Below, piece after piece: positions 1,486 through 64,000 of a DNA stretch of 64,000 nt. A program made the position numbers and the translations under genes. The DNA comes from Clostridia bacterium (GTDB taxonomy: Bacteria; Bacillota; Clostridia; TANB77; CAG-508): NCBI GenBank assembly GCA_017430135.1, contig JAFRNM010000007.1, positions 6,266 through 70,265 on the forward strand, in the 5' to 3' direction. The notes beneath the pieces were generated by a model. That model was not told the origin of the DNA. It saw nothing but the letters and a program-made list of their open reading frames with translations, and did not search any database. Positions within the stretch are counted from its first letter, which is position 1. Every line of letters begins with the position of its first letter.

Positions 1486-3840
1486 ATGAGTAAAATTAAG
1501 GATAAATTTGAAAAACATTACACAAAATCAGGATTTTACGTAATAAATAATGTAAGAGGTATAACTTTAACTACATTGGTAATTACAATAATAGTTTTGC
1601 TTATTTTAGCAAGTGTTGCTACATTTACTGGGATTGAGGCTATTGAAAATACAAAGCGAACTAAATTTATTGCAGAATTAAAGATTATGCAAAGCTATGT
1701 AAATCAGTGGTATGAGGACTGTAAGCCTAGTGTAAATGCTACAGAATATGATAAACAATTTGCTACAAATGTTCAAACAAAGTTCACAATAGATGGCAAT
1801 GTTGCAGTAAATGCTACAAGCTCTGAGCCATTAGTTAGTGATAAAGTTGCACAAGCTCAAAGCTCTTTAAATAATGCAAACGTGGAACCCAAATACCATG
1901 GGAATTTTTATATTTTAGAAGAATCCCAATTACAAGCTTTAGGGGTTGAAGGCGTTAGCCAGTCAGTTTTAGTAAGTGTACAAGATAGAAAAGTTGTAAG
2001 TTACCTTGGTTTGAAATATAAAAATCAAATGTATTACACAATTGATAGCATAGATGGTGAAAATGGAATTGATGCTATTTATAATGTTGGGTACGAAAAT
2101 CCAAATAAAAATCCACCAAGCATTCTAGTTACAGGTAGGTCAGTTTATAATGGTGAAACTGCCAAAGGTGCAAAATATAAATTTATAGTTGATGTAACAC
2201 AAGGCTCAAGATATATAAACAAAGGCGATTTGTATTATGGTAAAATTGAAAATGGAAATGTTGGAAGTTGGAACAAAACAGAAGATAAAAGTTTTATTGT
2301 AGATAGAGAAGGAACTTATAAAATATATTACAAAGATGCTGCTGGGAATGAAAGTGAACAAGTGGAATATAAAATTGAGCCAAAGGCAACATTGTTAGCT
2401 GGTCCAAACCTTAATCAGAAAATAAAAACTATAGCTGGAGATACATCTGCAACATATGATACAGAAAACACAAGTATAATTGAAATAAAAACGGCTCTAG
2501 AAAAACCTGATAATTCAATTTTAACAGATAATAATAAAATATCAGCAGATAATTCACAATATCCAGTATATAGCTGGTTTAATAATGGTACAATATGGGT
2601 TTGGTCAGAAGAAAATTGGTTTAAATTACAAGCTGATTGTGGATATTTGTTTAGAAAATTTAAAAATACTAAAACTATAGAGCCATTATATATGTTTTAT
2701 ACCCCTAATGTATCAAGTATGCATGCAATGTTTTATGGATGCACTAATTTAGAAAAACTTAATTTATCTAGTTTTGATACAAAAAATGTTAATTCTATGT
2801 CTCATATGTTTAATGGTTGTAATTCATTAGCTGATTTGGATTTAAGTGGTTTTGATACTAGAAATACTACTGCTATGAATGATATGTTTAGTGGATGCAC
2901 TAAATTAACAAATTTAAATGTTTCAAATTTTGATACAGCAAAAGTAAATAACATGACATATATGTTTTATAGTTGTAAAGCCTTAACTAATTTAAATCTA
3001 TCAAGTTTTAATACATCAATAGTATCTAATATGTTAGGTATGTTTATGGAATGTACTAATTTAGTAAATTTAAATTTAACAAATTTTGATACAAACAAAG
3101 TAGAAAATATGCAATATATGTTTTATAACTGTAATAGATTAGCCAGTTTAGATTTATCTAGTTTTAATACTCAAAAAGTTAAAACTATGAATGCAATGTT
3201 TTATAATTGCAAAACTTTAACAAATTTAGATTTATCTAGTTTTAATACTGAATCTGTTATAACTATGGTCAATATGTTTCATGCTTGTAGCAGTCTTACA
3301 AATTTAAATATTTCTAGTTTTAATACAAGTAATGTAACTAATATGCAAGCAATGTTTGCAAGATGTTCAAACTTAACCAACTTAAATCTAAGTAAATTTG
3401 ATACAAATAAAGTAACTACTATGTCAAGTATGTTTAATAGCTGTAATAAATTAACTGAATTAGATTTATCTAATTTTAATACTGAAAATGTTACAACTAT
3501 GAATAATATGTTTTATGGATGTAGTGGATTAACAAGTTTAGATTTATCTAGTTTTGATACAAGTAAAGTAACAACAATGTGGTGTATGTTTTATGGATGT
3601 AATAATTTACAAACTATATATGCTTTAGATAATTTTGTAACAACTGCTTTAACTAATGCCCCAATAGCAAATCAAGCAGAAGGAAATACTAATTCATCTC
3701 ATTTATTTGTAAATTGTACAAAATTAGTAGGTGGTGCAGGAACAACATATAATTCATCTAATACAGACAAAACTTATGCTAGAATAGACGATCCAACAAA
3801 TGGAAAGCCAGGATATTTCACACGAAAACAAAATGTATAA
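1486..3840 (+). CDS. surface protein: pilin-like N-terminal leader/hydrophobic helix fused to BspA-type (DUF285) leucine-rich repeats
   Basis: 784 aa with RBS AGGAGG. N-terminus ...NNVRG|ITLTTLVITIIVLLILASV closely resembles the pilin at 55918 (KG|ITLIALVITIIVLLILAG). About 12 units of a 26-aa repeat (LTNLdLSsFdTskVtnMxxMFxxCxx). C-terminal GGAGTTY...GYFT tail. Confidence 0.8.
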   Translation: MSKIKDKFEKHYTKSGFYVINNVRGITLTTLVITIIVLLILASVATFTGIEAIENTKRTKFIAELKIMQSYVNQWYEDCKPSVNATEYDKQFATNVQTKFTIDGNVAVNATSSEPLVSDKVAQAQSSLNNANVEPKYHGNFYILEESQLQALGVEGVSQSVLVSVQDRKVVSYLGLKYKNQMYYTIDSIDGENGIDAIYNVGYENPNKNPPSILVTGRSVYNGETAKGAKYKFIVDVTQGSRYINKGDLYYGKIENGNVGSWNKTEDKSFIVDREGTYKIYYKDAAGNESEQVEYKIEPKATLLAGPNLNQKIKTIAGDTSATYDTENTSIIEIKTALEKPDNSILTDNNKISADNSQYPVYSWFNNGTIWVWSEENWFKLQADCGYLFRKFKNTKTIEPLYMFYTPNVSSMHAMFYGCTNLEKLNLSSFDTKNVNSMSHMFNGCNSLADLDLSGFDTRNTTAMNDMFSGCTKLTNLNVSNFDTAKVNNMTYMFYSCKALTNLNLSSFNTSIVSNMLGMFMECTNLVNLNLTNFDTNKVENMQYMFYNCNRLASLDLSSFNTQKVKTMNAMFYNCKTLTNLDLSSFNTESVITMVNMFHACSSLTNLNISSFNTSNVTNMQAMFARCSNLTNLNLSKFDTNKVTTMSSMFNSCNKLTELDLSNFNTENVTTMNNMFYGCSGLTSLDLSSFDTSKVTTMWCMFYGCNNLQTIYALDNFVTTALTNAPIANQAEGNTNSSHLFVNCTKLVGGAGTTYNSSNTDKTYARIDDPTNGKPGYFTRKQNV
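2638..3621 (+). repeat. tandem 78-bp (26-codon) LRR units inside the CDS
   Basis: The SSFDT/SSFNT motif recurs every 26 residues at aa 428, 454, 480, 506, 532, 558, 584, 610, 636, 662 and 688. Confidence 0.8.
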
Positions 3841-3949: not shown

Positions 3950-5611
3950 ATGAATTATAAAGACTTAGCCGATTTAATATTTCCAGATGTAAAGGAAATA
4001 TCATATTATGAAGAAAAATATCCAAGAAGAAATTTACCAGAAGGAGCAATGGTATTAAGAGTTGCACCAAGTCCAACAGGAAATGTACATATAGGTACTA
4101 TATACCAAGCATTAATTGGTAGAATAGCATCTAAAAAAACAAATGGTGTGTTTTATGTAAGAGTTGAAGATACGGACCAAAAAAGAGAAGTAGAAGGTGG
4201 AATTTCTCAAATAATAAAATCAATGCATGATTTTGAAATAATCCCAGATGAAGGAATGACAACAGAAGAAGAATGGAAAGGTAACTATGGGCCATATAAA
4301 CAAAGTATGAGAAAAGAGATTTATCAAGCTTATGCTAAATACATGATAGAGCAAGGAAAAGCGTATCCATGCTTCTGTTCTCAAGAAGAATTAGATGAAA
4401 TAAGAGAAAAGCAAACTGCTGCAAAAATAAGACCAGGATACTATGGTGTTTGGGCAAAATATAGAACACTTCCAGTAGAAGAAGCTGCAGAAAAAATAAA
4501 AAATGGAGAACACTATATAATAAGATTTAAATCTCCTGGTAGAGAAGATAGAAAAATAAAACATAAAGATGTAATAAAAGGAAATGTAGAATTCCCAGAA
4601 AATGACCAAGATATAGTAATTATAAAAGCTGATGGACTTCCAACATATCATTTTGCACATGTTGTAGATGACCACTTAATGGGTACAACACATGTAACAA
4701 GAGGAGATGAATGGTTATCTTCTGTACCATTACACTTACAATTATTCCAAGAAATTGGATTTAAAGCCCCAAAATATGCACATACACCAACATTATTAAA
4801 AAATGATAATGGAAATAAAAGAAAAATTAGTAAAAGAAAAGATGCAGAGGCAGCTACAAGCTATTACCTAGAAGAAGGAATACCAGCATTGGCTGTAAAG
4901 GAATATTTATTAAATATAGCTAATTCATCTTTTGAAAATTGGAGAAGAGCAAATCCAGATAAAGATATTGAAGAATTTGATTTCCAATTAAACAAAATGA
5001 GTGTAAGTGGTGCATTATTCGATATGGTAAAACTTTTAGATGTATCAAAAATAGTAATATCAAGAATGACTGCAGAAGAAGTATACGAAAAAGCTTCAAA
5101 ATGGGCATCAAAATATAACCCAGAATTAAATAAATTACTTGAAAACAAAGAATATGCTCTAAAAGTATTTGGAATAGAGAGAGGAAACAAAAAGCCAAGA
5201 AAAGACATTGCAAAATGGTCAGATGTTATGGAAAACATAGATTATATGTATGATGAATATTTCTATGCAAAAGAACAAAATAGAGAATATCAAGTAATAA
5301 ATGAAAAAGAAGATATTGCAAAAATCTTATCACTATACATAGAAAAATACTATGATGAAAATGATGACAAACAAGCATGGTTTGATAAAATAAAAGAACT
5401 AGCAGGAGAACTTGGATATGCAAAAGAAGTAAAAGAATTCAAAGCAAATCCAGATGCCTACAAAGCACATGTTGGTGATGTAAGTACAGCAATTCGTGTT
5501 GCGCTTACAGCAAGAACAAATACACCAGATATGTATGAAATAATGCAAGTTCTAGGAAAAGATGCTGTAGTTGCAAGATTACAAAAAGAAATTGAAAGAT
5601 TAGAGAAATAA
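3950..5611 (+). CDS. gltX: glutamate--tRNA ligase
   Basis: Class I aaRS signatures PSPTGNVHIGT (HIGH) and KISKRK (KMSKS); RVEDTDQKRE block typical of GluRS; RBS AAGGAGAG. Confidence 0.85.
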   Translation: MNYKDLADLIFPDVKEISYYEEKYPRRNLPEGAMVLRVAPSPTGNVHIGTIYQALIGRIASKKTNGVFYVRVEDTDQKREVEGGISQIIKSMHDFEIIPDEGMTTEEEWKGNYGPYKQSMRKEIYQAYAKYMIEQGKAYPCFCSQEELDEIREKQTAAKIRPGYYGVWAKYRTLPVEEAAEKIKNGEHYIIRFKSPGREDRKIKHKDVIKGNVEFPENDQDIVIIKADGLPTYHFAHVVDDHLMGTTHVTRGDEWLSSVPLHLQLFQEIGFKAPKYAHTPTLLKNDNGNKRKISKRKDAEAATSYYLEEGIPALAVKEYLLNIANSSFENWRRANPDKDIEEFDFQLNKMSVSGALFDMVKLLDVSKIVISRMTAEEVYEKASKWASKYNPELNKLLENKEYALKVFGIERGNKKPRKDIAKWSDVMENIDYMYDEYFYAKEQNREYQVINEKEDIAKILSLYIEKYYDENDDKQAWFDKIKELAGELGYAKEVKEFKANPDAYKAHVGDVSTAIRVALTARTNTPDMYEIMQVLGKDAVVARLQKEIERLEK

Positions 5612-5613
5612 CA

Positions 5614-5744
5614 AAAAGCAAATATATTAAAATAAAGTGACGCGCAGCTTGGAAGGAGAATATGAAGTTGTTAAAAGCTTTGCTTTTATACAACTTCAAT
5701 TCGCACGACCAGTAAGGAACGGCTATTTTAATATATTTGCTTTT
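5614..5744 (+). repeat. structured 3'-UTR repeat, divergent relative of family B
   Basis: The 21-nt arms AAAAGCAAATATATTAAAATA / TATTTTAATATATTTGCTTTT are perfect inverted repeats. They enclose a GC-richer core (GTGACGCGCAGC...GAAGTTGT-loop-ACAACTTC...CGCACGACCAGTAAGGAACGGC). Starts 3 nt after the gltX stop. Confidence 0.7.
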
Positions 5745-5835
5745 ATATTATATGTCGAAATTTGTAACAATTTCTTTTTGAAATCATAGAATATAGTATA
5801 GCAGGAAGTTAACTGCTATACTGGAGGTGAGAAAT

Positions 5836-6078
5836 ATGGAACCTCAAGAACAAAAAATATATTGTTATTGTAATAAAGATTGTAAAAAGAAAAGTTGCAT
5901 AGGAACAGCAGTTGCGATATTCTTTGTAGCGTTTGCTTTTACAATTGGATTAATTATAGGAGCTGCAGTAAGTACAGCAATTTTAGATGCTTTAGCTGCT
6001 GTAATAGTATTAGCTATAGTTTTATTTATATTATTTGTAGTTGCATTGATACTACAATATTGTAGAAGACGTTGCTAA
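5836..6078 (+). CDS. small Cys/Lys-rich membrane protein (two predicted TM helices), unknown function
   Basis: ATG 5836 lies 8 nt after GGAGG (the track start GTG 5827 overlaps the RBS). Sequence MEPQEQKIYCYCNKDCKKKSC, then a long hydrophobic stretch, then CRRRC. Confidence 0.55.
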   Translation: MEPQEQKIYCYCNKDCKKKSCIGTAVAIFFVAFAFTIGLIIGAAVSTAILDALAAVIVLAIVLFILFVVALILQYCRRRC

Positions 6079-6251
6079 AATTTTTAAATAATTGGCGAAT
6101 TTCGTTGTTGAACTGCATTCGATAATCCAGCACAAGGCATACTGACGCTGTAACATGCAAAGCATTAACAGCCTCAGCATCGACGTGCAACAAGCACGCC
6201 TCCGGTTATCTCATTTATTCGCCTAGAAATTCGCTCAATTATTTAAAAATT
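6079..6251 (+). repeat. structured 3'-UTR repeat, family A copy 1 (long apex)
   Basis: AATTTTTAAATAATTGGCGAATTTCGTTGTTGAACTGCATTCGATAATCC...GCACGCCTCCGGTTATCTCATTTATTCGCCTAGAAATTCGCTCAATTATTTAAAAATT. Homologous to 39795-39914 and 62780-62901. Confidence 0.85.
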
Positions 6252-6255
6252 GCAT

Positions 6256-6289
6256 AAAAAAATGGAAGAAAATTTTTCTTCCATTTTTT
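6256..6289 (+). terminator. intrinsic terminator
   Basis: ATGGAAGAAAA/TTTTCTTCCAT stem followed by a T-run; lies directly after repeat A1. Confidence 0.7.
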
Positions 6290-8765: not shown

Positions 8766-8841
8766 TGGTGCTTCCAACGGGAATCGAACCCGTGACCTCA
8801 GCCTTACCAAGGCTGCACTCTACCTACTGAGCTATAGAAGC
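8766..8841 (-). tRNA. tRNA-Thr (anticodon GGU), CCA encoded
   Basis: The reverse complement folds as a cloverleaf. Acceptor GCTTCTA/TGGAAGC; D arm GCTC-AGTAGGTA-GAGT; anticodon arm CAGCC-TTGGTAA-GGCTG; T arm ACGGG-TTCGATT-CCCGT; 3' ACCA. Confidence 0.9.
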
Positions 8842-11171: not shown

Positions 11172-11190
11172 ATAATAGAAAATATAAAGG

Positions 11191-11298
11191 CTAAATATAT
11201 ATTCTGGGAGTGGTCAAGTGGGGACCGTTCCATAGTTCTTAGAGATTTATCTCTTAGAACTATGTGAATGGGGAGACCCGGGAAGAATATATATTTAG
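11191..11298. repeat. hairpin-flanked GC-richer element (single copy in window)
   Basis: Arms CTAAATATATATTC / GAATATATATTTAG enclose TGGGAGTGGTCAAGTGGGGACCGTTC, a central stem CATAGTTCTTAGAGA-TTTA-TCTCTTAGAACTATG, then GAATGGGGAGACCCGGG. Starts 20 nt after the thrS stop. Confidence 0.6.
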
Positions 11299-11340
11299 TC
11301 AAGATAAGTATTAATTCGAAAGAAAGGAATGAAACAAAAT

Positions 11341-13490: not shown

Positions 13491-13754
13491 CGGTTATTAC
13501 CTCCAATCAAATGATTTTCATGAACAAACGAACTGTAGCTGTCTACTCGAGGTATACAACTTATAATGTTTTCTAATTATATCATAAAAATACCATACTG
13601 TCAAGTTATGTAAAATTTGTAAAAACATGTCAAACTGTGAAATATTTTGATATTTCTGTATAATTAGATAAGCGTTTTACTAGATTATAAAAGAAAATTT
13701 AGTAAAATACTTGATTTTTTTCATAAAAAATGTAATAATATATAAAATAAATAA

Positions 13755-13996
13755 AAACGAGGAAAAAGAGGAGTAAGTTTATACTAGTTTAAAAGAGAAT
13801 AGAAGTCATCGGCTGAAAGCTTCTAAAACAAAAGGTAAACTGAAGGTAGCTTTGGAGTTGATATATTGAAATAAAAGTAGATATATTCGCGTTGGCTGCG
13901 TTAAAAGCTAAAATGAGATAATGTTTTATAAACATTAATTAAGGTGGTACCGTAAGATTCAAGTCTTGCCCTTATTATAGGGTAAGACTTTTTTGA
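13755..13996 (+). promoter_or_regulatory. T-box leader (probable valine specifier GUA) upstream of the lacX-like/valS pair
   Basis: AGAGAA bulge and GGCTGAAAGC distal loop. GGTAAACTGAAGGTAGC region contains GUA twice. T-box AATTAAGGTGGTACCGTAAG. Terminator AAGTCTTGCCCT...AGGGTAAGACTT followed by TTTTT. Confidence 0.8.
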
Positions 13997-17592: not shown

Positions 17593-17634
17593 GGGACACT
17601 CTAAAAATGCCACATAGCATTTTTAGAGTGTCCC
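17593..17634. repeat. family D palindrome (GGGACAC type)
   Basis: GGGACACTCTAAAAATGC-CACATA-GCATTTTTAGAGTGTCCC. Lies between the valS stop and the convergent small ORF. Confidence 0.8.
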
Positions 17635-17645
17635 TAAATTCCTTT

Positions 17646-17837: not shown

Positions 17838-18047
17838 TAATCATATTATAGAGGCAGTTATATATTATTATTAAGCAAGTTATATTAAACCGTTCGTCCT
17901 TATCATATTATAGAGGCAGTTATATTATGAAACGAGGACGCGTAGGCGGAGCGGAGCGAAGCGGTGAAGCGACCCGACGAACTAGTATTTTTAAAATAAG
18001 GAGGGTCGTGACAACAAGGACGAGTGTAATAATATAACTGCCTAGAA
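17838..18047 (+). repeat. family B copy 1, composite (partial inverted end, 29-bp direct duplication, full copy)
   Basis: CCTTA(A)TCATATTATAGAGGCAGTTATAT occurs at 17836-17863 and 17898-17925. AAACCGTTCGTCC at 17888 is an inverted element end. The full core is GACGCGTAGGCGGAGCGGAGCGAAGCGGTGAAGCGACCCGACGAACTAG...GGAGGGTCGTGACAACAAGGACGA. Confidence 0.8.
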
Positions 18048-25234: not shown

Positions 25235-25462
25235 TTTTCAAGCATTCCTTTCTTAATTTATGTAAATATTATATTATAAAAAATAAATTAGGTCAAGTGC
25301 AAATAGTAATGTGATTTTGCCCTGTGACATAGGGTAATATGCTTTTTAAGAGTGTCCCAAATCGCATAGAGGAAGTGAAACAGACTGGGCAGGAATTACA
25401 GGTGTTAATCAATCCAATATTGTTATAAATCAATATAACTATACTGGAGATTAAAATAAAAA

Positions 25463-31176: not shown

Positions 31177-31188
31177 TAATACAATGCT

Positions 31189-31336
31189 TTTATAATTTTA
31201 TTATATTTTTTTTAATTCCTTGGTGTCGCAATTTCCATATTTTAAAATACTAGTATGTAAATTGCTCCAGTCGCCCTGCGCTTCGCTTCGGTTGGTCGCT
31301 TACGCGGAATTCAAAAATAATATAATAAAATATAAA
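31189..31336 (-). repeat. family B copy 3 (short apex), inverted orientation
   Basis: CCTTGGTGTCGCAATTTCCATATTTTAAAATACTAGTATGTAAATTGCTCCAGTCGCCCTGCGCTTCGCTTCGGTTGGTCGCTTACGCGG between AT-rich inverted arms. Confidence 0.85.
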
Positions 31337-31366
31337 TAGATTATATTTAAAAGGAGAATTAAAAAA

Positions 31367-34126: not shown

Positions 34127-34774
34127 ATGAAAAAATCATTAGTATTGATTTTAATTGTATCAATTATTGCTGGCTTAATAGTAATCTTTACAGTAGGATT
34201 TAACCTAAAAGTTACAACAAAAGCTCATCAAGAAATACTAGTAAACATAGGTGAAGAATATAAAAACGAAGAAGTTAAACAACTTGCAAAAGAAGTAATT
34301 GGAAATGATATAGAAGTACAAAAAACAGGGGACTTTGAAGATCAAGCAGTTATTTCAGCTGAAACTATTTCAAAAGAGCAAGTTACTGAAATTGTAAACA
34401 AAATAAATGAAAAATATGGAAAAGAAATATCAGATGGAAGCATAACAATAAATGATGTTCCAGCAGCAAGAGTATCAGAAATGTTTATGCCACAAATTTG
34501 GAGTTTTATAATTGCAACAATAATAATATTTGTATATTTTGCTATAAGATATAAAAAACAAGGTGTAGCTAGAGTATTACTAACAGCAATTATAGGATTG
34601 GGACTTTTGGAACTATTAGTATCAAGCATTATAGCTTTAATTAGAATACCAGTAGGACAAAATATAGTATCAATTATTTATATAACTTATGCAATAGCAA
34701 TGTTAGTTGTTACAACAATGTTTGAAAAAAAGGCACAACAACTAAAGCTAGAAGAAGAAAAGAAGAAAAAATAA
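34127..34774 (+). CDS. SecF-like membrane protein (short, divergent)
   Basis: 215 aa: TM, about 100-aa extracytoplasmic domain, then YFAIRYKKQGVARVLLTAIIGL... resembling the SecF TM2-4 region. Shorter than a typical SecF. Confidence 0.4.
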   Translation: MKKSLVLILIVSIIAGLIVIFTVGFNLKVTTKAHQEILVNIGEEYKNEEVKQLAKEVIGNDIEVQKTGDFEDQAVISAETISKEQVTEIVNKINEKYGKEISDGSITINDVPAARVSEMFMPQIWSFIIATIIIFVYFAIRYKKQGVARVLLTAIIGLGLLELLVSSIIALIRIPVGQNIVSIIYITYAIAMLVVTTMFEKKAQQLKLEEEKKKK

Positions 34775-34778
34775 AAAT

Positions 34779-34887
34779 GAGCAATTCGGGGACACTTCCT
34801 GAGCAATTCGGGGACACTTCCCAAAATGTACAAATTTTGTACATTTTGGGAAGTGTCCCCGAATTGCTCAGGAAGTGTCTCAAAATT
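34779..34887. repeat. family D nested palindrome (about 109 bp)
   Basis: GAGCAATTCGGGGACACTTCC appears twice, then CAAAATGTACAAA|TTTGTACATTTTG, then GGAAGTGTCCCCGAATTGCTC and AGGAAGTGTCTCAAAATTG. Near-perfect two-tier inverted repeat. Confidence 0.85.
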
Positions 34888-34967
34888 GTTTAAAAATTTT
34901 CATTTGTTCGCTTTAATTTAAAAACAAAATATGATAAAATTCGACTATATAAAAAGGAGAGATAAAT

Positions 34968-37900: not shown

Positions 37901-39794
37901 ATGTCCACCACATATTCCAGGCTGTGAAGAAGATATAAAAAACATAGCATACAAAAAAGCGTATGAATTATATGGAAATCCATTACCAGAAATAGTTGAA
38001 ACAAGATTGGCTAAAGAATTGGACTCTATTATAAGCAATGGATATTCCGTAATGTATATTATAGCTCAAAAACTAGTGTGGAAATCAAATGATGATGGAT
38101 ATATAGTAGGTTCTAGAGGTTCGGTTGGTTCATCTTTAGCTGCATTTATGACAGGTATAACAGAGGTTAATTCACTTCAACCACATTATAGATGTAAAAA
38201 ATGTAAATACTCAGACTTTACAGATTATGGCTATCAAAATGGATTTGACTTACCTGATAAAAAATGCCCAAATTGTGGAGAAATGCTTGTAAAAGATGGA
38301 ATGGACATACCATTTGAAACTTTCTTAGGCTTTAACGGAGATAAAGAGCCAGATATAGACTTAAACTTCTCAGGAGAATATCAAGCAAAAGCCCATAAAT
38401 ATACAGAAGTAATATTTGGAAAGGGAACAACCTTTAAAGCTGGAACAGTTGGTACAGTTGCAGATAAAACAGCATTTGGTTATGTAAAAAACTATTTTGA
38501 AGAAAGAGGCATACCAATAAATAAAGCAGAAATTGCAAGGCTTTCACAAGGATGTACAGGGATAAAAAGAACAACAGGACAGCATCCAGGTGGAATTATA
38601 GTTGTACCAAAAGGTAGAGAAATATATGAATTTACTCCGGTTCAGCACCCTGCAGATGACCCAAATTCAGATATTATAACAACACACTTTGATTACCACT
38701 CAATAGATGCAAACCTTTTAAAACTAGATATACTTGGACACGACGATCCAACAGTAATTCGTATGCTTCAAGATTTAACAGGAATAGCACCAACAGAAAT
38801 CCCATTAGATGACAAGGAAACAATGTCAATTTTCAATTCAACAGAAGCTTTGGGAGTAACACCTGAACAAATACATTCAGAAGTTGGAACTTATGGGATA
38901 CCAGAATATGGAACAAAATTTGCTAGAGGAATGCTTTTGGATACAAAACCAACAACATTCGACGAATTAATTCGTTTATCTGGTTTATCACATGGTACAG
39001 ACGTATGGCTTGGAAACGCTCAAACATTAATAGAACAAGGAGTAGTTACACTTCAAGAAGCAATATGTTGTCGTGATGATATAATGATTTACTTAATAAA
39101 AAAAGGAGTACCACCAGACAAAGCTTTCAAAATAATGGAAACAGTTCGTAAAGGAAAAGCGTTAAAAGACCCAGAAAAATGGGCAGGATTTAAGGAAATA
39201 ATGAAAGAACATGATGTGCCAGATTGGTATATAAAATCTTGTGAAAAAATTAAGTACATGTTCCCTAAAGCTCATGCAGCAGCTTATGTTACAAATGCCT
39301 TCAGAATAGCGTGGTTTAAGGTTCATATTCCACTTGCATATTATGCAGCATATTATTCAATAAGAGCAAAAGCATTTGATGCAGAATTTATGATAAATGG
39401 AAAAGAAAAAGTAAAAAACAAAATGAAGGAAATAGAAATAAAAAATCAGAAAAAGGAAGCAACAAATGCAGAATTAGATATGTATGATGATTTAGAAATT
39501 GTACTGGAAATGTATGAAAGGGGCTTCGAATTCCTTCCAGTAGATATATATGAATCAGACGCAACAAAATTTAAAATACAAGATAATAAATTAAGACCAC
39601 CACTAAATAGTATTGCAGGATTTGGAACAGTTGCAGCACAGGGAATAGTAAATGCAAGAAAAGATGGAACTTTCATGTCAATAGATGAATTAAAAATAAG
39701 AGCAAAGATTGGAGACTCTGGTGCAGAATTGCTTAAAAAATTTGGATGCTTGGAGGGGATGAGTCAATCTAATCAGATGAGCTTGTTCGACTAG
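34968..39794 (+). CDS. polC: DNA polymerase III PolC-type, 1608 aa, with two tandem OB-fold domains
   Basis: GTG start behind AAGGAGAG. PHP (VELHMHTKMS), DnaQ-like exonuclease (CVLDLETTG...AHNANFDVGFL), Zn module (CKKCKYS...CPNCGE) and polymerase core. Confidence 0.92.
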   Translation: MAEKNKKIGEVFPDYKTNSNIKYAYVQALKVNKKTNTLCIMIGIDEYIEVKEIWFLEKFLMERFNFGNIDTYIKYTDNVEIKSIQEEWKNVICYMAHKYPLAKPMLLMNADIDVQDNKINVKMHIKGADFLRAKKSDKTLEMLIKNIMGKEYKIEITEDLNQDAIKKIEEEARKAENSVVSKVMESLESAKREQEASKEMAFENEAANGVDPNYMPPSDSDMPYMGGEGMPEDYMPPELPEYEQEQTLILGKATKAKENRVKIKEITPSDARITLEGRVSNVEKRLTKSEKVLLIFELFDGSGTITCKSFTIPDEAEAVIAKLEEANTVKLIGKANLDAYAGDVTVIANTIFQTNNDSIPKKEDVEEEETPLILGFNQNVGEKITKITDLGPEDGKVVLKGEVLNMEPRELKSGKTLLSFDLYDGTSTLTCKAFLNKDQAKKVPKRLKKAKGIKIEGNAGMDNFSGELSVMANTIIETEGLKKEIRMDNAPVKRVELHMHTKMSQMDAMTSAQDLIKRAMKWGMKSIAITDHGVVQSFPEAHKLLGVDNPDMKVLYGVEAYLAPDNTQNVYNSKGQNIDTTYCVLDLETTGFSAKTEKITEVGIMKVQNGEVVDEFSCFVNPEKHIPERVTEVTHITDEMVKDAETIEKVFPKILDFLGDTKNTVIVAHNANFDVGFLRQNAINLGLDFDYTYLDTLSLAKDLFPDYKTYKLGKIAERLGIKVEVAHRALDDVDTTVKVFNVMIDMLKDKGVKTIDDIDLMAADEETKKEEYKKLKTYHAIILAKNYVGLRNLYRLVSLSHLHYFYRKPRILKSLYKKYSEGLILGSACEAGELYQAIELGKTDDEIEAIANDYDYLEIQPTGNNNFLIRNGTVPDEEALRDINRKIVEVGEKLGKPVCATCDVHFMDPQDEIYRRILEAGQKYDDADNQAPLYLRTTEEMLEEFKYLGEEKAYEVVVTNTNKIADMCEQISPISPEKCPPHIPGCEEDIKNIAYKKAYELYGNPLPEIVETRLAKELDSIISNGYSVMYIIAQKLVWKSNDDGYIVGSRGSVGSSLAAFMTGITEVNSLQPHYRCKKCKYSDFTDYGYQNGFDLPDKKCPNCGEMLVKDGMDIPFETFLGFNGDKEPDIDLNFSGEYQAKAHKYTEVIFGKGTTFKAGTVGTVADKTAFGYVKNYFEERGIPINKAEIARLSQGCTGIKRTTGQHPGGIIVVPKGREIYEFTPVQHPADDPNSDIITTHFDYHSIDANLLKLDILGHDDPTVIRMLQDLTGIAPTEIPLDDKETMSIFNSTEALGVTPEQIHSEVGTYGIPEYGTKFARGMLLDTKPTTFDELIRLSGLSHGTDVWLGNAQTLIEQGVVTLQEAICCRDDIMIYLIKKGVPPDKAFKIMETVRKGKALKDPEKWAGFKEIMKEHDVPDWYIKSCEKIKYMFPKAHAAAYVTNAFRIAWFKVHIPLAYYAAYYSIRAKAFDAEFMINGKEKVKNKMKEIEIKNQKKEATNAELDMYDDLEIVLEMYERGFEFLPVDIYESDATKFKIQDNKLRPPLNSIAGFGTVAAQGIVNARKDGTFMSIDELKIRAKIGDSGAELLKKFGCLEGMSQSNQMSLFD

Positions 39795-39914
39795 GTTGCA
39801 AAATAATTGGCGAATTTCGGCGTTGAACTGCATTCGATAATCCTCAACGTGCATCAGCACGCCTCCGGTTATCTCATTTGTTCGCCTGGAAATTCATCCA
39901 ATTCTTTCGCAACC
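39795..39914 (+). repeat. family A copy 2
   Basis: GGTTGCAAAATAATTGGCGAATTTCGGCGTTGAACTGCATTCGATAATCC...GCACGCCTCCGGTTATCTCATTTGTTCGCCTGGAAATTCATCCAATTCTTTCGCAACC. Starts directly after the polC stop. Confidence 0.85.
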
Positions 39915-40293: not shown

Positions 40294-40312
40294 TTTTTAT
40301 TATGTGTAATTT

Positions 40313-40357
40313 AAAAATATATTGATTTTTGAAGGTTCTAAAAATCAATATATTTTT
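40313..40357 (+). terminator. intrinsic terminator
   Basis: AAAAATATATTGATTTTT-loop-AAAAATCAATATATTTTT followed by a T-run. Confidence 0.65.
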
Positions 40358-40452
40358 TTCTTTGTAATAAAAATGTAAAAAAATAGAAAAGTACACATAA
40401 TAATATTAAATAATTATAATAAAAAACAATATACAAATTGTAAACAATGTAA

Positions 40453-41009: not shown

Positions 41010-41049
41010 GATTTTTAATAATTTATGCTAAAATGTCTATATATAAAAA

Positions 41050-41210
41050 TTAAAATATATTATTTTGTTTTCCGCGTAAGCGACCAACCGGAGCGAAGCG
41101 CAGGGCGACTGGAGCAACTTACAGACTAGTTGTGCGAAAAATTGCTTTGGAATTTTTCTGTACAACAAGGGAAGTTGCGACACCAAGGAAAACAGAAATA
41201 ATATATTTTA
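41050..41210 (+). repeat. family B copy 4 (long apex)
   Basis: CCGCGTAAGCGACCAACCGGAGCGAAGCGCAGGGCGACTGGAGCAACTTACAGACTAGTTGTGCGAAAAATTGCTTTGGAATTTTTCTGTACAACAAGGGAAGTTGCGACACCAAGG between arms AAAATATATTATTTTGTTTT / AAAACAGAAATAATATATTTT. Confidence 0.9.
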
Positions 41211-41237
41211 ATTATATACATAGAAAAGGAAATAATT

Positions 41238-43043: not shown

Positions 43044-43078
43044 AAAATAGAAAAAACAAAACAAAGTTCGCAAAACTA

Positions 43079-43107
43079 TTGACTTAATATTGGACTTTTG
43101 GTATAAT
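43079..43107 (+). promoter_or_regulatory. sigmaA-type promoter of the small-ORF transcript
   Basis: TTGACT, 17 nt spacer, TATAAT. Confidence 0.6.
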
Positions 43108-43246
43108 TGCTCCAAGTTGGGACGCTAATCGAATTTAGGCATAAGTGCATAGATTAGAAAGTATCTATGTGAATGTGCTGGCTAATCTATGCATTTATGC
43201 CTTCAAGGCTAAATGTATAAAGTGCAAAAGAAGGAGGTTGGCAGCT

Positions 43247-43408
43247 ATGAAGTTATTGACAATATTAGTATTACTTTTAGCTTTCTTTCGAGGAATAGGC
43301 TTTTTAATACATATTTGTTCTAAGAATAAATGTGCCTTAAGAATAATTTCCAAGAAAAGAAAAATTGAGATCTGCCCTTTGGACAAATCTCACCCACAGA
43401 TCAGATAA
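43247..43408 (+). CDS. 53-aa hydrophobic-N / basic-C small protein (type I toxin-like)
   Basis: ATG behind AAGGAGG. MKLLTILVLLLAFFRGIGFLIHICSKNKCALRIISKKRKIEICPLDKSHPQIR. Own promoter, about 130-nt structured leader and own terminator (GATAAGAG...CTCTTATC then TTTTT). Confidence 0.5.
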   Translation: MKLLTILVLLLAFFRGIGFLIHICSKNKCALRIISKKRKIEICPLDKSHPQIR

Positions 43409-43499
43409 GAGCTTAGTCTCTTATCTTTTTATATTATTATAATAACACATGTATATAAATATGTCAATAGTTAGAATATAAAATTAGGGAGAATGTGAT

Positions 43500-47166: not shown

Positions 47167-47183
47167 TTAATTATGCTTTTTTT
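47154..47183 (+). terminator. intrinsic terminator after rplT
   Basis: AGCATAATT/AATTATGCT stem flanked by an A-run and a T-run. Confidence 0.75.
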
Positions 47184-47211
47184 ATTACTTTTTGTGACTT
47201 TTTTTGGATGA

Positions 47212-47237
47212 CTTTTTGGGACACTCTTAAAAATCAA
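47212..47237 (+). repeat. family D half-site, left inverted repeat bracketing the spoVA operon
   Basis: CTTTTTGGGACACTCTTAAAAATCAA. Matches the reverse complement of 49423-49448 at 25 of 26 positions. Confidence 0.85.
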
Positions 47238-47251
47238 GCCCCAATAAAATG

Positions 47252-49390: not shown

Positions 49391-49422
49391 ATTCATCATC
49401 CTTTCATTTGAATTATTTAACT

Positions 49423-49448
49423 TTGAATTTTAAGAGTGTCCCAAAAAG
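49423..49448 (-). repeat. family D half-site, right inverted repeat bracketing the spoVA operon
   Basis: TTGAATTTTAAGAGTGTCCCAAAAAG on the + strand, i.e. the reverse complement of CTTTTTGGGACACTCTTAAAATTCAA. Confidence 0.85.
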
Positions 49449-61429: not shown

Positions 61430-62779
61430 ATGCCTACATACAACTACAAAGCAGTAACTAAAACAGGATTAGTTGTTAGAAACAGGGTTGAAGCACCAAG
61501 TAAGCAATCTTTAATGAAGGCAATAAAGGAAAATGATTTAACACCAATTAATGTTGAACAGCGTTCATATAGATCAAGGTCTAACAAAGCAAAGCAAAAG
61601 AAAAATATTTCTAATATGCAAGAACTTATGAAAAATGTTAATACAACAGAAATAAATAGAACTCCTCAAAGAAGTATGTCAACAAAAGAAAAGATTTCTA
61701 CATACTTTGAACAAACTAAAAAGATAACATCAAGAGATTTAGTTGTATTCACACAGAATTTCTATTTGTTGAAAAAAGCTGATTTTAACAATATACATGC
61801 TTTGCGTACACTGATTGAAGGAACAGAAAACTTGTCTTTAAAAGGTATAATTGAAGATATTTTAGCTGGTGTTGAAGCCGGAGAAAACATGTATACAACA
61901 ATGGAATACTATTCAGATGTATTCCCATACATATATGTAAACATGATAAAAGTTGGTGAGCTTTCAGGTTCGCTTACAAATTCTTTGCAACAAGCTGTTG
62001 AATATTTAGATGATACAACAAGATTAAACAAAAAAATAAAGGGAATATTGATTCCTAATATAGCGCAATTCTTACTATTATTTGTATTATTAATTGTAGG
62101 TTCATTAGTTGCAATCCCTACAATTCAAGATATTTTCGAAGAATTAGGAACAACAGAAGAATTACCAGCATTAACAGTAGGATTCTCTAATTTTATAAAA
62201 GGCGCGGTAAATATGTGGTATATACCACTTGCTATAATTGCGGGAATAGTTGCAGCTATTATAGCTTATATAAATACCCCTAAAGGAAAATATAATTTTC
62301 ACTATTTTAAATATAAGATGCCTATATTTGGTAATTTGATATTTTCATTAGATTTTTCAAGATTTATGAAAGCAATGCTTTTAAACTTGAAAAATGGTGT
62401 AAGAATTCAAGAGGCTTTGGAAGTAAGTAAAAATGTTGTAAAAAACTATGTAATGCTTTCAATGATAGAAACATCTATAAACAATATTTTAGTTGGTTCA
62501 TCATGGATAGAGCCATTTGAAAAATCAGGCTTATGTTCATTCATGTCAATTGAAATGTTGAAGGTAGGTATGCAAACAGACTTGCCAGAGATGATGGAAA
62601 AATTAGTAGAATATATGGAAATAGATATTGATAATACATTGGCTAAAATAACAAAGACATTACCTCAAGTTATGTATGTAATTGTTGGTGTTGTGCTAAT
62701 TTTCGTTGTATTGGTTGTACTTGTACCATGTATTCAAGTTTATATGGGAAACTTTCTATTCTCAGCTTATGGAGTTTAA
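61430..62779 (+). CDS. pilC: type IV pilus platform protein PilC (GspF family)
   Basis: 449 aa with two GspF-type repeats and three TM segments; follows pilB/pilT. Confidence 0.8.
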   Translation: MPTYNYKAVTKTGLVVRNRVEAPSKQSLMKAIKENDLTPINVEQRSYRSRSNKAKQKKNISNMQELMKNVNTTEINRTPQRSMSTKEKISTYFEQTKKITSRDLVVFTQNFYLLKKADFNNIHALRTLIEGTENLSLKGIIEDILAGVEAGENMYTTMEYYSDVFPYIYVNMIKVGELSGSLTNSLQQAVEYLDDTTRLNKKIKGILIPNIAQFLLLFVLLIVGSLVAIPTIQDIFEELGTTEELPALTVGFSNFIKGAVNMWYIPLAIIAGIVAAIIAYINTPKGKYNFHYFKYKMPIFGNLIFSLDFSRFMKAMLLNLKNGVRIQEALEVSKNVVKNYVMLSMIETSINNILVGSSWIEPFEKSGLCSFMSIEMLKVGMQTDLPEMMEKLVEYMEIDIDNTLAKITKTLPQVMYVIVGVVLIFVVLVVLVPCIQVYMGNFLFSAYGV

Positions 62780-62901
62780 CTTTAAAAATAATTGGCAAAT
62801 TTCGGTGTTAAACTGCATTCGAAAATCCTGCAACGTGCAACAAGCACGCCTTGGATTCTTCTCATTTGTTTGCCTAGAAATTTACTCAATTCTTTTTAAA
62901 G
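62780..62901 (+). repeat. family A copy 3
   Basis: CTTTAAAAATAATTGGCAAATTTCGGTGTTAAACTGCATTCGAAAATCC...GCACGCCTTGGATTCTTCTCATTTGTTTGCCTAGAAATTTACTCAATTCTTTTTAAAG. Starts directly after the pilC stop. Confidence 0.85.
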
Positions 62902-62920
62902 TAGTTATAAAAACAGTAAA

Positions 62921-62951
62921 AAACAAATCTCGCTTTGCGGGATTTGTTTTT
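62921..62951 (+). terminator. intrinsic terminator downstream of repeat A3
   Basis: AAACAAATC-loop-GATTTGTTT followed by TT. Confidence 0.55.
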
Positions 62952-63871: not shown

Positions 63872-63876
63872 GCAAT

Positions 63877-63978
63877 GAATTTGGAGCCACCTTGAATTTG
63901 GGGACACTCTTAAAAATCAAGGTTTTTGAAAACCTTGATTTTTAAGAGTGTCCCCAAATTCAAGGTGTCTCCAAATTC
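63877..63978. repeat. family D nested palindrome (about 100 bp)
   Basis: GAATTTGGAGCCACCTTGAATTTGGGGACACTCTTAAAAATCAAGGTTTT|GAAAACCTTGATTTTTAAGAGTGTCCCCAAATTCAAGGTGTCTCCAAATTC, followed by a further partial unit AAGAGTGTCC. Confidence 0.85.
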
Positions 63979-64000
63979 AAGAGTGTCCAAAAAAGTTAAC

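Follow-up and report, generated by a model that had tools for sequence, protein, structure and literature searches.

Is a G+C-rich, highly structured element that recurs between the genes of an A+T-rich Clostridia genome a family of RNAs or a mobile DNA, and do the A+T-rich arms that enclose it belong to it? The question is raised by positions 41,050 to 41,210 of a stretch of 64,000 nucleotides from a Clostridia bacterium (GenBank assembly GCA_017430135.1, contig JAFRNM010000007.1, positions 6,266 to 70,265 of the forward strand; in the following the window), which hold the focal copy of a repeat here named family B. We report that family B is undescribed but of a familiar general kind, i.e. 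small palindromic interspersed repeats, and that it stands outside any named family. Our preferred explanation, to which we assign a probability of roughly 0.55, is that it is a non-coding, non-autonomous foldback mobile DNA repeat resembling miniature inverted-repeat transposable elements (MITEs) or bacterial interspersed mosaic elements (BIMEs), which is mobilised in trans by an enzyme and remodelled by template switching and slippage.

To search the window we used a covariance model trained on 28 family B copies from related genomes, none of them from the window. It gave six strand-specific matches scoring 57-163 bits, while the opposite strand of the same sites scored 14-29 bits; the repeat family proposed in the first-pass annotation is thus genuine. 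Moreover, a 26-nt core probe had three window matches at ≤3 mismatches compared with none in 100 shuffles. Repeat finding grouped the copies near 41, 28, 31 and 48 kb (41k, 28k, 31k and 48k) and, separately, those near 18 and 57 kb (18k and 57k). The six copies constitute two subfamilies, B1 (28k, 31k, 41k and 48k) and B2 (18k and 57k), and the conserved 5' terminus of the core is common to both:

41036-41224, plus strand: focal copy (B1), whole palindromic unit of left arm, core and right arm; fold -60.2 kcal/mol, z = -7.9
41041-41220, plus strand: covariance-model match of the focal copy; 114-124 bits on the plus strand versus 16 bits on the minus strand
31187-31339, minus strand: B1 copy with a short 90-nt core, between disA and a cyclophilin gene; 163 bits
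27956-28135, minus strand: B1 copy with a variant 5' module, beginning at the stop codon of an mtaB-like gene; 84-94 bits
48696-48908, plus strand: B1 copy with an 86-nt apical hairpin, in the spoVAC-spoVAD operon spacer; 83-123 bits
57801-57947, plus strand: B2 copy between two pseudopilin-like genes; 69 bits
17906-18051, plus strand: B2 copy adjoining the gerAC stop codon; 57 bits

The GC content of the window is 25-34%, and a recount agrees with the earlier figure of 32 G/C in the 47-nt left part of the focal core. As also described before, all window copies are intergenic and lie 0-40 nt after a stop codon, two in sense and four in antisense orientation; their neighbours are housekeeping and sporulation genes.

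Of the six to seven copies counted in the first-pass annotation, six stand. The candidate seventh, at 5614-5744, scored 25 and 22 bits on the two strands and hence represents a hairpin match only; its core is unrelated, with a similarity to family B no better than that of shuffles (z about 0). Two hairpins, at 5608-5750 and 11181-11308, have AATATATT-type A+T arms around G+C-richer structured cores of unrelated sequence. The 11k core (11181-11308) belongs to a separate family, with a 94% identical copy in metagenome locus L121, and no second copy was found of the 5.6k core.

The anatomy of the unit was derived from alignments of 28, and then 62, copies. For the focal copy the parts are as follows:

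41036-41071, plus strand: left A+T-rich arm, A+T-only; the inner part fits the consensus AATATATT-n-ATTTT-nnnn
41072-41188, plus strand: core, starting with CCGCGTAAGCGACCAACCGGAGCGAAGCGCAGGGCGACTGGAGCAAC, followed by the apical hairpin and then GTTGCGACACCAAGG
41072-41109, plus strand: 5' module with CC, a GCG-TAAG-CG mini-hairpin, RAGCG pentamer repeats and the first GCGAC
41110-41181, plus strand: hairpin module TGGAGCAACTT...AAGTTGCGAC with an exchangeable apex, 72 nt, GCGAC direct repeats at its bounds
41114-41120 with 41172-41178, plus strand: P2 stem, covarying across copies
41182-41188, plus strand: 3' core tail ACCAAGG, of which the final GG pairs with the initial CC
41189-41224, plus strand: right A+T-rich arm, complementary to the left arm

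The layers of this nested hairpin are the arms, the closing CC/GG (alignment pairs 36/211 and 37/210, both invariant C-G), a CGC-GNAA-GCG mini-hairpin, a variable RAGCG-rich stretch, P2 (GCAAyyy/rrrTTGC), P3 (CAkA/TmTG), the apex and the tail GACACCAAGG. GCGAC occurs three times as a direct repeat, the stretch of RAGCG pentamers between the mini-hairpin and P2 varies among copies, and apex modules are found joined to different 5' modules. The compensatory changes noted earlier in the helix that closes the apex are borne out by the alignments (GCAACTT/AAGTTGC, GCAATTT/AAATTGC, GCAATCT/AGATTGC and GCAAACT/AGTTTGC), and the second helix, P3 (CAKA/TMTG), also covaries. The apex itself, described before as variable, is exchangeable in part only, with ACTAGT and GGAAG conserved there.

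Beyond the window we found approximately 70 copies, all on low-GC contigs of uncultured gut or rumen Clostridia. Specifically, a degenerate pattern of the left end identified 39 loci in about ten metagenome-assembled genomes (MAGs) of uncultured Clostridia from human gut and buffalo rumen, and a 19-mer of the left end matched 26 low-GC metagenome contigs; six extra 19-mer matches, in contigs with 59-68% GC, were judged to be due to chance. Family B is spread over different intergenic sites in about a dozen of these uncultured Clostridia, and insertion sites are not shared between species in syntenic regions. The units usually occupy the entire spacer, from the stop codon to the next ribosome-binding site. 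With respect to gene context, the spacers of 47 independent loci include 40 tandem, three convergent and no divergent ones, and relative to the flanking genes 27 copies are antisense and 13 sense. Neither a BLAST search of plasmid and phage databases nor a pattern scan of viral contigs gave a family B match.

None of about 75 copies contains a coding insert, the right end being 89-150 nt from every left end. A search for an autonomous copy with the same ends, which covered one genome per species and the Joint Genome Institute (JGI) metagenomes, was likewise negative: all 43 genome and 26 AT-rich metagenome left-end matches have a right end within 150 nt. That there is no transposase in the window, as reported earlier, is supported by Pfam/domain tables, which show no transposase or recombinase domain.

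To follow individual sites, same-species contigs were retrieved through exact-protein matches. Strains at 97-99% identity differ in presence, orientation and module content of family B, and at three loci (the DUF1294 spacer, 31k and 18k) the orientation of the core differs among closely related strains. One allele that bears on where the unit ends lies in the window itself and was identified by strain comparison:

40303-40367, no strand assigned: arms-only hairpin AAAAATATATTGATTTTTGAA-GG-TTCTAAAAATCAATATATTTTT, a core-less family B allele in the DUF1294 spacer

Other strains carry a 150-nt core in the loop at this position, in minus orientation in L040, L041, L071 and L073 and in plus orientation in L072 and L117; the cores of the three filled lineages are 99% identical. 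The junctions are nucleotide-precise and without microhomology, AGAA-CC-TTC compared with AGAA-CC[GCG...CAAGG]TTC, and the arms show no change. The more divergent strains (L072, L071 and L073) carry a core here, so that loss in the window lineage would be the more parsimonious interpretation of the arms-only allele.

The other sites add to this allele series. At 28k, six sister-strain contigs lack the core together with one arm. What remains is AAAAATAAATATATTTTT, except in one strain, which has the exact reverse complement of it; slippage between the A5T and AT5 ends of the arms would produce such alleles. In another species this post-stop position is occupied by a core of a different subtype, oppositely oriented and with other outer arms. 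Deletions from the second to the third GCGAC arose independently at two sites: at 48k in L071 and L073, and at 41k in L072, where exactly the 72-nt segment 41110-41181 is missing. At 31k, L083 and L084 have the core in opposite orientation and the outer arms and adjacent flank are different, while the inner 19 nt of each arm move with the core upon the change in orientation. Finally, at 18k, L084 and L085 carry the core inverted within other arms and L082 is without a 60-nt duplication; the arms of the window allele are direct and inverted copies of sequence 60 nt upstream (for the left arm, a local duplication of 17841-17863) and a 12-nt remnant of the inverted copy is left at 17888-17899. 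The series is that of a highly unstable palindrome in which the unit is usually arms plus core, and the DUF1294 alleles hint that the core may be processed by itself, too.

In the first-pass annotation the arms were regarded as simply locus-specific and the core as inserted into the loop of a pre-existing terminator-like hairpin. Judged from the sequence comparisons, the A+T arms appear mostly to belong to the repeat unit, with at least the inner approximately 20 nt inherited. These inner nucleotides share the family consensus AATATATT-n-ATTTT-nAAAn|CC, and a mismatch 4-6 nt from the core recurs in at least 60% of independent copies, which argues that the inner arms are inherited and not made locally. 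Moreover, five paralogues in MAG CAMBEE01 have 22-28 nt of arm in common although their flanks differ, and the conservation of the arms falls off with distance from the core. The two arms of a copy match each other far better than they match those of other copies (own-arm pairing score 22.2 versus 9.2 for arms from different copies), and at one site the pairing extends into the upstream stop codon (ATAG/CTAT).

What part of the pre-existing hairpin model survives is the A+T hairpin without core at 40303-40367, with filled sister strains. The remainder does not agree with the arm consensus, the shared mismatch and paralogue arms or the single-arm empty alleles at 28k, nor with the rarity of arms-only hairpins, of which we found one in 434 kb compared with about 50 filled ones. 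Sites elsewhere are also free of AT hairpins: the two pseudopilin genes on either side of the 57k copy are separated by about 18 nt in species L039, with no hairpin between them, and empty sites of other species consist of a 25-nt spacer or an ordinary GC-stem terminator, with no AT hairpin. The orthologous spacers and the comparison of arms hence place the arms mostly within the repeat unit, the outcome that the first-pass annotation had itself set against its model; only the outer 3-10 bp are locus-specific.

With respect to target-site duplications (TSDs), the longest flanking direct repeat has a mean length of 3.0 nt, compared with 3.1 nt in mismatched-flank controls, a comparison that a short palindromic duplication (TA) would escape. 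A candidate 8-bp direct duplication of the AATATATT block was discarded, the non-palindromic variants in L001, L012, L037 and L120 being inverted and not direct.

It is documented that template switching between the arms of inverted repeats makes these arms more alike and longer and turns the spacer around (PMC8604942, PMC8794818, PMC13100816). According to our preferred explanation, family B would owe its movement to an enzyme that acts in trans from a gene at some other place in the genome. Core ends that are conserved and asymmetric, together with the lack of a detected TSD, speak against classical DDE cut-and-paste transposition. After insertion, template switching and slippage during replication would reshape the palindrome at the DNA level, i.e. 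homogenise and lengthen its arms, flip the core, remove modules that lie between short direct repeats and exchange modules among copies. To the host, a copy presents a very stable hairpin just past a stop codon, whichever its orientation, and this would probably act as a transcript 3'-end or processing barrier.

Several observations weigh against this explanation. No mobilising enzyme and no autonomous copy came to light in the MAGs and 8-kb flanks, which are a poor place to look for them, and no insertion with known polarity was caught, since all empty alleles could also be deletions. The junctions of the arms-only allele are more readily explained by an enzyme that takes only the core as its substrate than by slippage, and the terminal 3-10 bp of the arms pair with each other although they differ from locus to locus (e.g. 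AACGTGGGA/TCCCACGTT and TCAAGTG/CACTTGA), a pattern that we account for only by inference. Moreover, in the core stems G.T mismatches outnumber A.C (12 versus 4, few and not independent), and orthologous copies are more similar in the core (99.3% identity) and arms (99.0%) than in the flanks (97.7%). Together with the antisense lean (27 versus 13), the core identity and G.T excess are weak hints of some strand-specific constraint; the higher core and arm identity is a weak signal that could stem from constraint, from gene conversion or simply from indel-prone AT flanks.

The most probable of the alternatives, which we nevertheless regard as doubtful, is that the mobile unit is the core only (GCG...CAAGG, about 90-150 nt), which inserts into and excises from the loops of AT hairpins seamlessly, e.g. 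as single-stranded DNA with an HUH enzyme of the IS200/IS605 type, so that the arms would be the target and their consensus a target preference. The exact arms-only and filled junctions at 40303-40367, without microhomology and with unaltered arms, agree with this, as do core ends that are asymmetric and conserved around a varying interior, paralogue cores that are about 95-100% alike while the arms differ, and the absence of a detected TSD. Like the IS200/IS605-derived palindrome-associated transposable elements (PATEs), the family B core has no terminal inverted repeats (TIRs) at its ends, no TSD, hairpins near asymmetric ends and possibly seamless loss; this pattern of TSD, TIRs and sub-terminal hairpins holds for the core alone, while the arms act as part of the unit. 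A tail of 10 nt follows the P2 hairpin and resembles the right end of IS608 in its geometry, which serves as a lead only.

Against this model stand the near absence of core-less target hairpins, the arm sequence that paralogues have in common and the inherited mismatch of the inner arms, and the strain phylogeny favours loss at the arms-only allele. Other species' empty sites lack any AT hairpin. Unlike in PATEs, the five bases before GCG vary (AATCC, ATACC, AACCC, ATTCC, GGAAC and others) and there is no conserved tetra- or pentanucleotide 5' of the core; only CC is constant, and it is missing from the single-arm empty sites. Long inverted arms are foreign to IS200/IS605 derivatives, and neither TnpA nor TnpB was seen. 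Two other types of DNA processing were tried and rejected: a serine- or tyrosine-recombinase crossover with a duplicated dinucleotide or overlap, the filled site having CC...GG and not a direct repeat, and a group I, group II or bulge-helix-bulge (BHB) intron, size and boundary bases disagreeing, as reasoned from established intron rules.

A further-reaching reading, which we consider unlikely, is that the GC core is a new structure-guided mobile DNA that enters or leaves AT-rich DNA at hairpin apices without target duplication. Fold-back of the core would drive synthesis of an inverted copy of the sequence next to it and so build long terminator-like hairpins, which would persist as arms-only scars once the core is gone. 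If it is true that the core alone is mobilised into hairpin loops, this would constitute a new target logic of transposition; if the core builds hairpins de novo, a selfish element or a replication error would generate intergenic hairpins in low-GC Firmicutes.

That family B represents structured non-coding RNA (ncRNA) genes, or a cis-acting RNA such as a 3'-untranslated-region stabiliser, a terminator or a protein sponge, with its stems under selection for RNA folding, appears improbable in spite of strong covariation. Paired bases make up 96.3% of cells, whereas column shuffles reach 78.5% and slid controls 36-45%, and both partners vary in 27 of 40 pairs. Moreover, the predicted fold is stable (z = -7.9), a GNRA-like CGC-GUAA-GCG and several GGA motifs are conserved, the copies lie always just past stop codons and never in divergent promoter spacers, and the core, which is a little more conserved than its flanks, accepts G.U over A.C in its stems. 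RNA selection on one strand would favour G.U, and in the arms no such strand bias is present, with 13 G.T and 12 A.C mismatches; the reverse strand of the focal copy folds nearly as well as the forward strand (z = -6.7). With respect to known families, the first-pass annotation could not match the element to any, and Rfam 15 is negative at both gathering and permissive thresholds: for the whole window only a T-box and a tRNA matched at gathering thresholds, and for the focal copy at E<10 only sub-threshold hairpin noise appeared (e.g. MIR6140 with 18 bits against a threshold of 140).

Palindromic DNA that is kept by template switching yields the same signal, mimicking compensatory evolution and covariation (PMC8794818). 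We think that the covariation does not show RNA and that the compensatory changes record maintenance of the palindrome and descent. It is not taken as RNA evidence because the DNA is palindromic, the arm mismatches are unbiased, copies are found in both orientations relative to host genes with near-identical strains differing at three loci, entire modules are deleted or swapped in healthy strains, and the sites, some of them within operons (spoVAC-spoVAD and the pseudopilin genes), are not conserved between species.

Spread without any enzyme is likewise improbable. Here the nascent strand would switch from an AT-rich site to a donor arm, copy the core, fold back to copy its own upstream sequence as the second arm and return, i.e. 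a self-propagating replication error. In favour of such a process are outer arms that are locus-specific yet perfectly complementary, even into a stop codon, a conservation of the arms that declines away from the core, the inverted copy of local flank in the 18k allele series and the 28k single-arm "empty" alleles that equal one arm exactly; moreover, neither a TSD nor a transposase was found. Template switching creates and extends hairpins (PMC8794818, PMC13100816), and quasipalindrome mutagenesis resembles family B in arm homogenisation, extension into unique flank, spacer inversion and apparent compensatory changes without selection (PMC8604942, PMC8794818, PMC7202029), but it is a mutational process, not an element family, and does not by itself account for dispersal to many loci. 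The recurrent uncorrected mismatch and subfamily arms of up to 28 nt would both be erased by fold-back copying, and the conserved unpaired core ends suggest recognition by a protein. We know of no precedent for inter-locus template switching that disperses a sequence to dozens of distant loci, and this counts against spread by replication error alone.

An inverton, in which a site-specific recombinase flips the core at its inverted arms and so redirects a promoter- or terminator-like signal, would agree with both orientations at the same locus in closely related strains (three loci) and with TTGCGACA in the core followed 18-19 nt on by TATAAT/TATATT in the arm (and a weak outward promoter-like match at 31229-31200), but is very improbable, since opposite-orientation alleles also differ in outer arms and flank and are not simple flips, no invertase gene lies near any copy, the window has no recombinase domain and a dispersed family of dozens of copies would be atypical. 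The outward promoter itself (TTGCGACA plus TATAAT in the arm) was rejected as a candidate, the spacing being mostly 19 nt and 111 matches being found versus 106 expected, as AT-rich arms yield such matches by chance.

Among described systems, the closest in function and architecture by analogy seem to be the mosaics of repetitive extragenic palindromic sequences (REPs) and BIMEs and the hairpin-forming bacterial MITEs (PMC2229807, PMC3733652). Like REP/BIMEs, family B consists of short, extragenic, high-copy palindromes after stop codons and inside operons, is a mosaic of modules in both orientations, has no TSD, and the putative mobilising gene is not adjacent to most copies. In contrast to the paired 20-40-nt GC-rich REP units it forms one nested hairpin of 135-215 nt with AT-only arms and an asymmetric GC core; its arms start with variable A/T and there is no GTAG/CGTC tag at the foot of the hairpin (for the tags, PMC3733652), and its host is a low-GC Firmicute lineage whereas REP/BIMEs are proteobacterial. 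With hairpin MITEs (Correia/NEMIS, RUP, ERIC and RPE; PMC2229807) it has in common that it is non-autonomous, 100-200 bp, intergenic and dispersed, with terminal inverted repeats whose transcripts form stable stem-loops and with presence/absence polymorphism among strains; arms of 20-35 nt are complementary in every copy. Conservation of family B peaks centrally and decays outwards, though, which is the opposite of transposase-recognised TIRs, and unlike MITEs it has asymmetric core ends, no detectable TSD and no related insertion sequence or autonomous partner that we found.

In terms of genome ecology, the palindromic GC clusters of yeast mitochondrial DNA appear to be the closest analogy. 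These and other mitochondrial GC clusters are also G+C-rich mobile hairpins in A+T-rich spacers that turn over rapidly between strains, merge and shuffle their modules and encode no enzyme, nor is one known for them (PMC4478555). They differ in being 30-60 nt long and organellar, with a reported putative AG/TAG target duplication (PMC4478555), and in having neither long AT inverted arms nor any sequence relationship to family B. Intrinsic terminators, in which a short G+C-rich stem with a loop of 3-8 nt precedes a U tract, differ as well: a consensus scan found none at the elements, whose AT-rich stems enclose 90-150 nt. Some arms end in T5 runs, and a weak, putative bidirectional termination activity is possible from this sequence feature.

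For a little-known clade of spore-forming Clostridia of gut and rumen, family B offers a testable cause of much of the intergenic variation among strains. It also calls for caution in RNA discovery, since highly significant covariation can stem from a template-switched DNA palindrome without RNA function, and its allele series (arms-only, single-arm, module deletions and inverted cores) can be used to study palindrome instability in anaerobes. Moreover, it represents a recurrent breakpoint of short-read assembly in these genomes. Contigs L044, L045, L075, L093, L098, L119 and L067 end in, or at the edge of, family B copies.

The window contains other repeats of comparable size. A second repeat family, of about 110-130 nt and with the ends AATAATTGGCGAATTTCGGYGTTGAACTGCATTCGATAATCC...AGCACGCCTCCGGTTATCTCATTTGTTCGCCTGGAAATTC, lies directly after stop codons at 6078-6272, 39793-39907 and 62778-62923 and has no Rfam match at gathering thresholds; MAG locus L012 has the syntenic spacer precisely without the 62.8k copy, and more copies are present in L001 and L117. 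Near-perfect long palindromes built on TTTGGGGACACTC/GAGTGTCCCCAAA (-81 to -95 kcal/mol) are located at 34774-34896 and 63876-63979, and the same motif occurs as single half-sites at 17611-17638, 25335-25362 and 49419-49446. At the stop codon of the ROK gene there is a TTTGGGGACACTC/GAGTGTCCCCAAA palindrome in the window and a family B copy in MAG locus L012.

Two spacers differ strongly in length from those of sister strains. The lepA-spoU spacer (43044-43499) has a length of 457 nt in the window as against 61 nt in L040, L044 and L045; the extra DNA has a strong promoter-like site at 43079-43107, a 78-nt perfect hairpin at 43131-43208, a small hydrophobic open reading frame (ORF) and terminator-like hairpins, and judging from these features it may be a small toxin-type or small-RNA cassette. 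In the rplT-spoVAE spacer (47167-47250), L071, L075 and L078-L080 hold about 7.3 kb that is absent from the window and encodes an extracytoplasmic function (ECF)-type sigma factor, a 429-aa protein, a Spo0A-like response regulator and several unannotated proteins. The T-box leader at 13751-13976 (112 bits) is upstream of aldose-epimerase-like and valS genes, and the tRNA gene is at 8769-8841 on the minus strand. Finally, ten tandem 78-nt repeats, 61-72% identical, at 2695-3680 within the ORF at 1486-3840 correspond to DUF285/LRR units of a 784-aa surface-type protein, upstream of which a RhuM/Fic-domain protein is encoded on the minus strand (296-1258).

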